Positions 2,431 through 64,000 of a stretch of 64,000 nucleotides of DNA are shown in pieces; position 1 is the stretch's first letter, and the number at the start of each line of letters is the position of its first letter. The position numbers and the translations under genes are program-made. The notes below the pieces were generated by a model. The model was not told the origin of the DNA. It did not search any database and saw nothing but the letters and a program-made list of their open reading frames with translations. Source of the stretch: Octopus vulgaris (Eukaryota); contig OX597819.1 in the NCBI GenBank assembly GCA_951406725.2, forward strand, positions 75,764,001 to 75,828,000, written 5' to 3'.

Positions 2431-2893
<463 letters not shown>

Positions 2894-2903
<10 letters not shown>

Positions 2904-5900
2904 AAAGCAATCAAATAAACAAATCACCAAAACAATTAAAACCATCCACTCTCGCCTCAACATTTCTGCTTAATGCCCAAGGCATCAGCCCTTCCACCAA
3001 TACACAAAAATGGAAGATAAGATTCCTGGAGGACTGGGTCGAGGCCCATCCAAACCACATCCCTTTCTTCGTCCTCACTGAAACCCATCTTAGTGACCTC
3101 CACTTGGAAGCCGAGGTGAAAGTTAAAAATTTCAAAACCATTCGTGCTGATCGTGTTGGCAGAAGAAAGGGTGGGACTGCCATTTATGTCCATGATTCAT
3201 TCTCAACAGAAGCCATGAACATATTTTCGAATGGATACTGCGAAGCAGTCGCTGTATTCAGTCAAACCAACAACTTAACAGTAGTTGGGCTCTACAGACC
3301 ACCCCAAACGCCCCTACCATGCTTCAAGGAATGCCTCAACAGCATAAAGTGTTTCATTCAGCAGTGTCAACCTGACAACATTTTAATGATGGGAGATTTC
3401 AACCTTCCCGGGGTTGACTGGTCTATAAACAGTCTGCCGCCAGGTTCTTCTCTCTCAACCCCTGACAGGGAGGCAGTGGAATCGCTTCTTGACTTCATGG
3501 ATGACTTCTTCTTGTCCCAACTGGTACTCGAACCAACGAGATGTCACAAAAACGTCTTAGACTTAATTTTCAGCAATCACACTGATACTATCCACAATAT
3601 TGCAGTGGAGAAAACCCTACTCTCCGACCATGACATGGTTCTCTGTGATCTGAGATTTCACTGGCCAAAATGCAAAACAAATGTCATCCCTCCTGTTCAT
3701 CCATTTGACACTATGGATTTCCACAATGCAAACTGGGAAGCGATCAATAATGATCTTGCACAAGTCGATTGGTCCTTCACGCACACATACACACCCACTA
3801 ACATCAAAAAGTCCTGGCAGTCACTTGTAGACACCATCACGAACATATGTGCAAGACACACCCCATTAAGATCTGCAAACAAATCTAAGTGTCGAATCCC
3901 TAGAAATAGAAAATCTCTCATAAGGAAAATTAAAAGAATCAACAAAAAGATCAACATGCTGAAATACTGTCAACAGCAACACACCAACCTGACTGCCATC
4001 TCGTCGCTAGAGATTAAAAAACATAAACTCCAAAACAACATGATGTCTATCATCAATAGTCAGCGAAGAGCTGAAGAGGCCTGGGCCATTGAGAAGATCA
4101 AACTCAATCCCAAAGTGTTCTTTTCATTTGCAAAAAAACACAGAGTCACTGGTTCTACTGTTGGCCCTCTGATTGATGAAAATGGTATTCTTCAAGACAA
4201 TGCCAAAACCATGGGAGAAATATTGCAGAAACAATATTGCTCTGTTTTCAGCAATCCTGATATGACTGATCTGGGCTGTATCAGTGATGTTACTCCCCAA
4301 TACACTTTATCGGACATAACATTTGGCGCTCCTGATGTCTTAGCAGCAATAAAGGAAATGAAGCATAATTCAGCAGTAGGTCCCGATAGGTTCCCTGCTT
4401 GTGTCTTGAAGATGTGTCAAAACCAACTTGCACCCCCTCTAGCCAATCTGTGGCGGAACTCATTGGATGCTGGATATATACCAGAAGACCTTCTATCCCA
4501 GTCTGTTGTCCCAGTTTTCAAAAAAGGAAACAAATCGCTTGCCGTGAATTACCGTCCAATCTCACTCACCTCTCATATCATCAAGGTATTTGAGAGGGTG
4601 CTGAGATCGCGTATGACTCACTTCCTTGAGAGTCATAATATGCTGAACCCCAACCAGCATGGATTCCGTAATGGGAGAGATTGCCTGACGCAGCTACTGC
4701 ATCATTTTGATGACATTTTGAGAGCCTTGGGAGAGGGTTCCAACACTGATGTCATCTACCTTGATTTCAGCAAGGCCTTTGACAGGGTTGATCATAAGAT
4801 CCTTCTGAGAAAGCTGTCCAATATTGGTGTCACTGGAAAGCTGCTGCAATGGATCAAGTGCTTCCTCTCTAACAGAACCCAACATGTTGTAGTCGAAGGA
4901 GTCAAATCCAGCCCAGCCAAAGTCAGCAGTGGTGTCCCACAAGGCACTGTGTTGGGCCCACTTCTCTTCATCATCTACATAAATGATATTACTGACACCA
5001 TCAAACACAGCAACATCAGAACCTTCGCTGATGATTCCAAGCTCCAGAAGGTCATCAATGGCGTGGATGACCGAATAAACCTTCAGTCAGACCTACTAGC
5101 TGTTGTCCAATGGGCGGAAAAGAATAACATGTTGCTAAATGAAGACAAATTCGAACTGATCCACTTTGGAAGGGAGGACGCTCTGAAACTCCCATACTCT
5201 CTTCCTTCTGGAGAAATTCTCATGGCATCCAACAACATCAGAGACCTGGGAGTAACAGTGGACAACAACATAAGCTGGGCTACACATATAAGCAGCAAAG
5301 TTGACATGGCCCGCAGAATGTGTTCCTGGATTCTCAGAACCTTCCAGTCGAGAGATTCCCACGCTATTATCCTTCTCTTCTCCACTTTTGCCCGACCCCA
5401 CCTTGAATACTGCTGTCCACTGTGGTCTCCCTACACAAAACAAAATATTATGAGAATTGAAGCTCCCCAAAGGTCAATCACAAAAAAGATAGATGGCATG
5501 TCAGACCTTGACTACTGGGGTAGACTAGAGAAGCTGAAATTGTATTCACTCCAACGACGCCGTGAACGCTACATTATCTGTATGATGTGGAAAATATTCC
5601 ATCAGCACTGTCCGAATGATGTTGGCATCACCTTCAAAATGCATCCAAGGCTTGGACCACGTGCCATCCGTCCACAACAAAAATCTAAATCGCATCACAT
5701 AACGACAATACGGCACAACTATTTCACCTCAATTGGACCCGCTCTCTTCAACATTACACCAGGACACGTCAAAAAAGAAACTGACCACACAAAATTCAAG
5801 AAGTCTTTGGACAAATTCCTTCAAACAGTACCGGACAAACCATCCACACCCGGATATGTCTCCGCAAACAATAACTCTCTGCTCGAATGGGCCTTGGTGC

Positions 5901-5911
5901 CCAAATCCTGA
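2894..5911 (+). CDS. LINE ORF2: apurinic-like endonuclease plus reverse transcriptase (1005 aa)
   Basis: APE motifs LLNAQG, LTETHL, GLYRPP, GDFNLP, LDLIF, SDHDMV. RT motifs NYRPISLTS, QHGFR, YLDFSKAFD, GVPQGTVLGPLLF, FADD, DLGV. No stops. Confidence 0.96.
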
Positions 5912-60545: not shown

Positions 60546-60588
<43 letters not shown>

Positions 60589-60968
60589 GATAAATATCAA
60601 AGTGAGTTATATACAGTAGCGGTAACACATCGTGACGTATTTTTGCCATTTCAATATGGCTAACCCCTAAGGGTGGATGCTACTGTAGTTTTTAGCCCCA
60701 GGAGGACACACTCCTCCAGCTGGCCATAGACACACTATCTGTGTCCTGTCAGTATTTGCAAAGGGAAGTCATCCTTCCCGTCTTCAACTTATGATACACT
60801 TAGGGGTTAGCCATATTGAAATGGCAAAAATACGTCACGATGTGTTACCGCTACTGTATATAACTCACTTTGATATTTATCATTGTTTGATTTCACTTTT
60901 TCAATATCAGCGACAGTGGGCGCTGGAAAAAGTATAAGTATTTGTGAAGGAAATCTAATTCTCGGCGA

Positions 60969-61038
60969 CAACTATGATTGTCACACGCTGACGAGAGGTC
61001 AATACCTCGAAACTCGAGTCCGTGTGTATCATAAGTTG
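60969..61038 (+). ncRNA. Type I hammerhead ribozyme with extended stem I
   Basis: CACACG-CUGACGA-GAGGU(caau)ACCUC-GAAA-C(UCGA)G-UC^-CGUGUG (60982-61026). Stem I extends by UAUGAU/AUCAUA and CAAC/GUUG. Predicted cleavage after C61020. Confidence 0.92.
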
Positions 61039-61320
61039 AAGACGGGAAGGATGACTTCCTTTGCAAATACTGACAGGACACAGATAGTGTGTCTATGGCC
61101 AGCTGGAGGAGTGTGTCCTCCTGGGGCTAAAAACTACAGTAGCATCCACCCTTAGGGGTTAGCCATATTGAAATGGCAAAAATACGTCACGATGTGTTAC
61201 CGCTACTGTATATAACTCACTTTGATATTTATCATTGTTTGATTTCACTTTTTCAATATCAGCGACAGTGGGCGCTGGAAAAAGTATAAGTATTTGTGAA
61301 GGAAATCTAATTCTCGGCGA

Positions 61321-61390
61321 CAACTATGATTGTCACACGCTGACGAGAGGTCAATACCTCGAAACTCGAGTCCGTGTGTATCATAAGTTG
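61321..61390 (+). ncRNA. Type I hammerhead ribozyme (second tandem copy)
   Basis: Identical to the first copy; core at 61334-61378; predicted cleavage after C61372. Confidence 0.92.
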
Positions 61391-61539
61391 AAGACGGGAA
61401 GGATGACTTCCCTTTGCAAATACTGACAGGACACAGATAGTGTGTCTATGGCCAGCTGGAGGAGTGTGTCCTCCTGGGGCTAAAAACTACAGTAGCATCC
61501 ACCCTTAGGGGTTAGCCATATTGAAATGGCAAAAATACG

Positions 61540-61603
<64 letters not shown>

Positions 61604-63009: not shown

Positions 63010-64000
63010 ATATATATTTAAGTAATGACAGGCTATATTCTGAAGTGACAGATATAACTGCGACCAGGATTGAGGACCGAATTAACACTGCATGAACGGA
63101 CATCTGTAGACGGAGACAAATACATAAATTCAAGGCAACTTCATCACAAATAACAGTAGATTACCGAGATTTTATCACCCCATTAAAACACACAAGAATA
63201 GCAAAACGATCCAGATTAGACCCATCATCTCCAGCGTGGAAGGCCCTCTATATAAAATATCCTGGTTACTTTCTCACCTCCTGAAACTCATACTCTCCAC
63301 CTTTCCTGGACACGTCAAGAACTCCGACGAAATCATCAAAAGACTGCACAAATTGCCCCTAGACCAACTCGGGCAAAACAGATATGCCTTTAGTCTTGAC
63401 GTTGTCTCAATGTACACAACGGTGCCAGCACACTCGGCGGTCAACCTATTGACTGACTGCATAACAGCGTCCGACATCCAATGCTTCGGACTTACCGCAG
63501 ATGGTATTCATCAAATTACGTCCATCATCGTGGACAACGCCTACTTCTCTTTCCAGGACTACATATACAAACAGACAACAAGTCTTTCCATGGGATTCAG
63601 ACTCTCGGGTCTATTAGCCATCACTTATATGAACCATCTGGAACGTCGAGCACTCAACATCTGCCACTCATGCACCTTCTTTACCAGGTACGTAGATGAC
63701 ATCCTCATACTCACATCCTCCCATGAAGAGGCTGACACAATATTCACGACGTTCAATAACATGGACATGAACATACAGTTCACTATAGAACATCCTGTCA
63801 TCACTGGATCGCTATCACTACTTGACTTCAAACTGAATATAACGGAAGGGGAGATCCACACCGAGTTCTACAGGAAAGCAGCCAGTAGAGATGTGTTTGT
63901 CCAATACAATTCAGCACTTCCACTCGGTGCCAAAATAGCCTATGCCAGATATGAACTTATACGCAACCAGGGTAAGTGCAGTAGAGCGGAGGACAAGTGA
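63010..64000 (+). pseudogene. Penelope-like element reverse transcriptase, 5'-truncated and disrupted
   Basis: PRFY..IKTHK....IRPIISS, SLDVVSMYTTVP, YFSFQDYIYKQ..LSMG..LS..LA..YM..LE, RYVDDIL, IQFTIE, LLD, YRK are PLE-type RT motifs. There is a frameshift and stop upstream of 63236 and a TGA at 63998-64000 before any GIY-YIG domain. Confidence 0.88.

Follow-up and report, generated by a model that had tools for sequence, protein, structure and literature searches.

The insertion and its hammerheads

Within the window, i.e., the whole 64,000-nt stretch of Octopus vulgaris DNA analyzed here, positions 60586-61543 are occupied by an insertion with a (TA)n target microsatellite on either side (60549-60585 on the left and 61544-61600 on the right). 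It consists of two arms of a single repeat unit, numbered u1-u353 with the second copy in the direct arm (61151-61503) as reference. The direct arm (60799-61543, plus strand) spans 2.1 units: it is 5'-truncated at u1, comprises a first copy of 352 nt (60799-61150, with its u1 at 60799) and a second of 353 nt (61151-61503), both on the plus strand, and ends at the first of two fixed 3' sites of the family (E1). The inverted arm (60586-60799, minus strand; 214 nt, 99.5% identical to the unit) runs through u226-353 and then u1-86, lacks the hammerhead core, terminates at the second such site (E2) and overlaps the direct arm by 1 nt at 60799. The ~45-nt "tail" between the two fixed ends (u41-86) is present on the inverted arm only (60586-60631, minus strand). 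The first-pass annotation, which had delimited the element as 60799-61543, captured the direct arm correctly and missed the inverted arm and the flanking (TA)n. Its statement that the copies differ by a single base stands insofar as there is one difference; this is a 1-nt gap in a C-run, the first copy having one C fewer, hence the lengths of 352 and 353 nt. The longer form is the family norm (C present in 84 loci and the gap in 8). The unit is non-coding, as had been claimed, with no ORF of more than 66 codons (stop-to-stop), and has a GC content of 43%. Tandem Repeats Finder did not report the unit array in the window.

Two identical type I hammerheads lie on the plus strand of the direct arm (60969-61038 and 61321-61390), with GUC triplets at 61018-61020 and 61370-61372 whose C's are 352 nt apart. 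The predicted cuts fall after 61020 and 61372, i.e., between u222 and u223, the very coordinates given in the first pass. All the hallmarks of the type are present: the core CUGANGA / GAAA / NUH, three stems and an open stem I. Read by hand, stem I has ten distal pairs with one bulge, an internal loop and six proximal pairs, and the rest consists of CUGACGA, a stem II of five pairs, GAAA and a stem III of two pairs with a palindromic tetraloop. This layout is described in PMC4209133 as usual for metazoan hammerheads and as working best as a dimer. In the comparison with Rfam Hammerhead_1 that the first-pass annotation had proposed, both hammerheads align over the full length of the model with 32.2 bits (E 7.8e-6), slightly short of the gathering score of 34; a search at that threshold reports no hammerhead in the window. 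An alignment of 22 sequences has 97% of its cells paired and 3 of its 23 pairs changing on both sides, the set being hand-picked from 63 distinct variants, with rows so related that the shuffle control is weak. The two-sided changes are in stems I and II and fall between subfamilies, and the core-proximal pair of stem II is broken in 11 of the 22 sequences, mostly from older subfamilies. Four loci of such older unit subfamilies (L220, L228, L224 and L239) have a CCGAUGA core and a stem II that is mismatched at its base; they nonetheless form arrays of up to ~9 units.

Stem III has only 2 bp, and when the ribozyme is folded on its own, the minimum-energy structures lack the active form. The predicted self-excised monomer RNA (61021-61372, plus strand) folds, in the model, such that stem I holds both ends together. 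Its z-score is -6.9, none of 100 shuffles was equally stable, and the four pairs on which the unit had been called hairpin-rich (GACACA/TGTGTC, GGAGGA/TCCTCC, GCCAT/ATGGC and CAGCG/CGCTG) are all present and form in the predicted fold. The hammerhead is predicted to cut the unit out as a small, possibly circular RNA. A TATA-like hexamer ~28 nt 5' of stem I (60933-60938, with a second copy at 61285-61290, plus strand) is kept as TATA(A/T)(G/A) in 7 of the 8 divergent copies inspected, and might be seen as a putative promoter element.

Other elements are seen alongside. An uninterrupted 1,043-aa LINE ORF with APE and RT domains and long TA-rich tracts on its flanks (2780-5911, plus strand) is unrelated to the retrozyme. 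A further family is represented by three minimal hammerhead cores (38972 and 40282 on the plus strand, 40216 on the minus strand), of which two lie back-to-back; they are probably termini of Penelope-like elements (PLEs). Elsewhere in the genome, three loci (L082, L083 and L086) belong to a different hammerhead family, one in which stem II contains a long insertion and which scores above the Rfam cut-off.

Genomic copies, their ends and the template

A DNA search of the genome (G000; 2.8 Gb in 227 contigs) recovered at least 191 matches among the best 40 of 2,482 candidates scored, with full-length units 94-100% identical. Exact 22-mers matched 479 times at the core and 1,014 times just past the cut, as against none for the reversed controls; the surplus of the latter 22-mer stems mostly from older subfamilies that are 85-93% identical. 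The copies are dispersed over many contigs, and such young dispersed copies bear out the recent origin proposed in the first pass. For the parsing of ends, 85 loci were taken: 27 top matches, 38 from the first 100 core-pattern matches (contigs C1-C3) and 20 from a second pattern (C1), leaving aside repeat fetches of one locus, two fragments within other repeats (L087 and L088), arms shorter than 60 nt and matches below 80%. In the parsed loci, the arrays have no internal region between the repeats, in contrast to an LTR-type architecture. Array lengths in the family are non-integer, the longest reaching ~9 units (L239).

The outer 3' ends of these arms, 127 in the 85 loci, fall at E1 (u38-47) in 67 cases and at E2 (u84-95), ~45 nt away, in 50, so that 117 of the 127 are at one or the other and 10 lie elsewhere; (TA)n adjoins 112 of them. 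In the 42 two-armed loci, an E1 end is matched by an E2 end in 35 cases, both ends are never of the same kind, and the other 7 loci each include one odd end. The probability of this one-each pattern would be 1e-11 if the ends were independent, one pair (L014/L015) in the set being a segmental duplicate, and four of four further two-armed loci also have one end of each kind. The insertion in the window follows the same rule, its right end (u40-43) being the commonest fixed end of the family. By comparison, the 5' ends are variable and evenly spread along the unit, with a raised u1-22 bin that is an artefact of splitting matches at u1. Two near-identical insertion pairs with common flanks, L014/L015 (C9) and, judged by eye, L090/L092 (C1), are segmental duplicates. 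Thus, the claim that arrays begin and end at arbitrary points was wrong for the 3' ends and right only for the 5' ones.

The two fixed 3' ends, variable 5' ends, inverted arm and (TA)n together constitute the footprint of PLE insertion. PLE insertions have been described as partial tandems whose 5' arm is inverted and of which only one end has a tail (PMC8557442, PMC3846280), the tail itself being described in PMC8557442, PMC11167929 and PMC3846280. For the anole PLE, the protein was seen in vitro to cleave AT-rich DNA on both strands and to extend each of them, two internal start sites define the tail and the protein is a predicted dimer (PMC11167929). In light of this, we consider it very likely that a PLE enzyme mobilizes the unit. 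The contrast drawn in the first pass between a retrozyme and a PLE was accordingly a false one, for the retrozyme inserts with a PLE footprint.

What this enzyme copies can be approached through the junctions. In the sample, 168 array passes cross the predicted cut site, with no indels in 1,166 bases there versus 162 in 53,479 elsewhere. A pile-up of 5' ends at the cut, as expected from a linear monomer template, was not seen: 8 of 129 5' ends are within u215-230 against 5.8 expected (P 0.23). Part of the sample was required to have a complete core, so that stops at the cut are under-represented in it; this bias does not affect the C1 set, picked by a downstream motif, which likewise shows no peak there. 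Such scar-free crossing without stops points to a template continuous across the cut, either a ligated circle or an uncleaved multimer. Thus, of the rolling copying of a circle suggested earlier, what survives is that one unit was copied repeatedly across the cut; the argument from arbitrary ends fails, and an uncleaved multimer would also fit.

The arrays are nearly always of one haplotype: at six common polymorphic sites, 6 of 290 site-by-locus multi-copy tests were mixed versus 137 expected if units were drawn independently, and in 6 loci rare variants are fixed across both arms. Long arrays favor a circle, which is also the simplest template, and on balance we lean toward the circular monomer as the main one. 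The chief alternative retains the element and the PLE enzyme and takes an uncleaved linear multimeric transcript as template, with the hammerhead being dispensable and circles at most by-products. Such a multimer would give the same scar-free crossing of the cut, and the mixed haplotypes along the arrays of L009 and L114, in the latter with the same order in both arms, fit it better; moreover, ribozyme mutants did not impair insertion of the anole PLE in vitro (PMC11167929). Also to be set against a self-cut RNA is that, of nine Xenopus retrozyme dimers, only one was cleaved in vitro (10.64898/2026.07.22.740005). Against the linear multimer, copying of a linear template with 5' truncation could shorten arrays but never lengthen them, whereas arrays of 5-9 units exist; the variants within a locus are nearly all singletons, those recurring in three or more loci being a homopolymer gap or CpG-type changes; and stems I and II of the hammerhead show compensatory changes. 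We therefore regard the linear multimer as the less likely template, albeit one to be taken seriously.

With the circle as the favored template, a sequence of events can be envisaged. A locus whose arm contains two hammerheads, such as that in the window, would be transcribed by read-through, probably from the TATA-like site, and the transcript would be cleaved, possibly via a dimeric hammerhead, to a 352/353-nt monomer that a host ligase would close. A PLE protein dimer would then cut both strands of (TA)n, with one cDNA being primed at u40-41 (E1) and the second at u86-89 (E2), and each cDNA would circle the template until it stops, after which the two 5' ends would be joined head-to-head. 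Overall, with good though not complete confidence, the element can be described as a non-coding, hammerhead-bearing, 353-nt animal non-LTR retrozyme that was likely written by the reverse transcriptase-endonuclease of a PLE into a TA microsatellite from a predicted self-cut, probably circular RNA.

The candidate helper, the terminal-repeat reading and the Tx1 LINE

The genome has young Neptune-type PLEs with intact RT and GIY-YIG frames of 781 and 784 aa, the label resting on a CxxxxCxxC linker before the endonuclease rather than on a tree, and the GIY-YIG candidates being the best 150 of 6,136 scored in the PLE search. Insertions of these coding elements, too, have their ends in (TA)n at one or the other of two positions separated by 33-40 nt, and one end of each kind is found in four of four inverted insertions of one set and likewise in L279, L285, L299 and L066, with L285 being the same locus as one of the four and L291 ambiguous. 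The hammerheads of three Neptune-type families (L061-L077, L132-L161 and L276-L313) are minimal, and their core is of the U3-A8 type. In the 781-aa family, there are an upstream ORF, at most 479 aa long, and a long 3' UTR with repeated boxes, which we take to be CCAAT- and CRE-like.

One locus connects the unit with such an element. L127 contains a 5'-truncated arm that belongs to the 784-aa family, from which it differs by ~1%, and that stops at the E2 site of that family; it is joined head-to-head and without a gap to a unit arm that ends at the atypical u143, with both outer ends in (TA)n. This looks like a single insertion made from two different RNAs; the join at this one locus could instead be a later deletion. 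The hybrid makes the 784-aa family (G000 loci L303/L309) the best helper candidate, an identification that we put forward tentatively. Comparison of the unit with loci of four PLE families, none of them of Hydra type, gave no sequence match and no parent terminal repeat. Among the candidates for a parent, the broken old-family PLE at the right end of the window (63128-64000, plus strand, continuing to ~2950 of L232), which is 25% identical to the Neptune RT, has a GIY-YIG domain and includes a minimal hammerhead at the 3' end, was rejected as an old family with matches of 37-85% identity and no ORF above 445 aa. Two hammerhead matches 3.2 kb apart on contig C2, considered as a full-length PLE, proved to be fragments inside other repeats.

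The same footprint might be read as that of ordinary pLTRs left by 5'-truncated coding PLE copies, inasmuch as pLTRs are likewise known for fixed ends, a tail, an inverted arm and a TA target (PMC8557442, PMC3846280), and two loci, L123 and L127, adjoin PLE coding sequence. On inspection, however, each arm continues from one unit into the next, for as many as ~9 units, without ever entering an ORF. At L123, the 3' UTR of an older Neptune family is split by the unit, which is absent from the other 29 fetched copies of that family, and this locus was thus also discarded as the parent element; in L127, the ORF points away from the unit, and none of 24 other copies of that family carries it. At no examined locus is the unit continuous with an RT and GIY-YIG ORF, as the pLTR of an autonomous element would be. 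The first-pass annotation had named as a refuting case that all copies be ends of a coding PLE: none is such a terminal repeat, though the 3' ends are indeed fixed. The pLTR reading is thus largely refuted, and we consider it improbable. No better placed is a local, satellite-like amplification of single insertions by unequal crossing-over, or else an assembly artefact: it would equally yield homogeneous arrays, and has been proposed in the discussion of 10.64898/2026.07.22.740005, but the arrays are scattered over many contigs with non-integer lengths, fixed 3' and evenly spread 5' ends, and their inverted arms carry the same variants as the direct ones, so that we hold it to be quite improbable.

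A Tx1-clade LINE (APE, RT and zf-RVT domains) was first met inside the unit at two loci. Of the 22 exact 3' ends of this Tx1 subfamily found genome-wide, 19 fit the junction pattern and one is a variant of it, placing 20 at u164; in 22 loci examined, unit sequence up to u181-186 stands before 13 full-length copies, resulting in a 20-bp duplication. The lower divergence of the Tx1 copies (2.0%) than of their flanks (8.4%), and the absence of correlation between the two, indicate that the unit is the target of repeated site-specific insertion. That the unit is instead a SINE-like element mobilized by this LINE, as its presence after 20 of the 22 3' ends might suggest, can be dismissed as extremely improbable, given that Tx1 sits between 20-bp duplications of u164-183 even when 5'-truncated or in tandem (as in L206, where a truncated copy with the duplication is followed by a second copy), that the 2.0% mean divergence among Tx1 copies is uncorrelated with that of the flanks (rho 0.03, 19 copies), that hundreds of unit copies have no Tx1, and that no common 3' tail of Tx1 and unit insertions was seen.

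Returning to the unit as the target, the Tx1 site is in stem I and leaves the hammerhead 59 nt downstream of the LINE whole; both such sites in the window (u164-183, at 60962-60981 and 61314-61333, plus strand) are empty. The uncorrelated divergences led us to reject Tx1 and the unit as a single co-evolving composite in general, with a possible exception in L192 (G000:C7:109530700-109540600), a two-armed locus with E2 and E1 ends and a Tx1 in both arms, 0.6% apart, where a Tx1-carrying unit may have been copied by a PLE. In L195 (G000:C20:29654900-29662100), the 5' flank of Tx1 is a unit of the young subfamily, the 3' flank is of the old one and the target duplicates differ, which suggests that unit sequence from upstream was part of the LINE RNA. 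A different fixed target is occupied by a sister Tx1 subfamily (92%) in clustered repeats (L185-L191, L210 and L211, in clusters on C27 and C2); U1/U2 genes were considered as that target and gave no Rfam match at the gathering score in 11 loci. The Tx1 that targets the hammerhead adds a three-level parasitism; on a more speculative reading, its insertion just upstream of the ribozyme would gain it a ribozyme-cut 3' end, the promoter of the repeat and occasional transport by PLEs.

The fullest version of the scenario, with a Neptune dimer making obligately one cDNA per start site on a ribozyme-made circle that Tx1 also parasitizes, is speculative as a whole. Were it true, circle-templated retrotransposition in an animal would for the first time be legible in a genome, and its helper would have a name; the presence of a candidate helper in the same genome makes a direct in vitro test possible.

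Comparison with known systems

By sequence criteria, the unit family corresponds to an animal non-LTR retrozyme, a kind already described (PMC7229834; bioRxiv 10.64898/2026.07.22.740005). A literature search, incomplete for subscription papers and repeat databases, found no published description of this family or of a Tx1 targeting a retrozyme, and the main text of the O. vulgaris repeat annotation (PMC13282606) does not mention ribozymes or retrozymes. Hence, of the first-pass suggestion of an undescribed retrozyme family, the novelty of the family stands and that of its kind does not. The search likewise yielded no paper on strict one-each use of the start sites, while the "tail at one end only" is already in print.

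Among PLEs, the EN+ Neptune-type elements and the anole Poseidon share with the unit two internal start sites, a one-ended tail, an inverted 5' arm, an AT-rich or (TA)n target and a hammerhead upstream of the starts (PMC11167929, PMC8557442, PMC3846280). The unit differs from them in having no ORF, a full-size rather than a minimal hammerhead and a tail of ~45 rather than 30-40 nt; its first end is 174 nt past the cut versus ~70 in the Neptune families of this genome. The non-autonomous PLEs of Chlamys such as MRC1 are, like the unit, non-coding, with multicopy insertions arranged head-to-tail, and of PLE structure; unlike it, they have a 3' sequence in common with an autonomous partner and are, as described in PMC8557442, mostly without canonical hammerheads. 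The Tx1 found here parallels the target-specific Tx1 LINEs (e.g., Tx1 in Tx1D, Keno in U2 and Tx1-Mar in Mariner-N4) in using a fixed site in another repeat and in forming tandem insertions around one target copy, and departs from the systems laid out in PMC4494074 in that its target is stem I of a retrozyme hammerhead. The plant LTR retrozyme has a type III hammerhead in LTRs and a 4-bp target duplication, whereas the unit is of type I and tandem and its duplication is unreadable in (TA)n, and so it falls outside that class.

The closest relatives are the metazoan non-LTR retrozymes of Cervera and de la Pena (2020, PMC7229834), with units of 350-390 bp in coral and mussel and of 330/350 bp in the axolotl, for which PLEs were proposed as helpers. 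Common to these and the unit are tandem non-coding units of 150-450 bp with a GC content below 50%, one canonical type I hammerhead per unit with a 2-bp stem III and a tetraloop, and a highly self-paired monomer. Circles and cleavage were demonstrated for those retrozymes, whereas the unit is known from DNA; conversely, the two fixed ends, inverted arms and (TA)n targeting of the unit are not among the retrozyme features in the portions of PMC7229834 drawn on here. That account leaves open both the agent that copies animal retrozymes and the role of their circular RNAs as templates. The 2026 preprint on vertebrates (Li, Clavereau and Pollet, bioRxiv 10.64898/2026.07.22.740005), in which most families have at most 7 units, concludes from homology that animal retrozymes use PLE machinery. 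Its case is built on co-occurrence and pLTR homology in Xenopus with a mollusc-free sampling, whereas the basis here is the anatomy of insertion, a homologous pLTR not having been found in the four PLE families compared. The octopus element is itself not a new kind; what sets it apart is a mechanistic anatomy that is unusually clear, with a young and numerous family allowing the mechanism to be read from DNA in the form of one-each start sites, scar-free rolling and a candidate intact helper.
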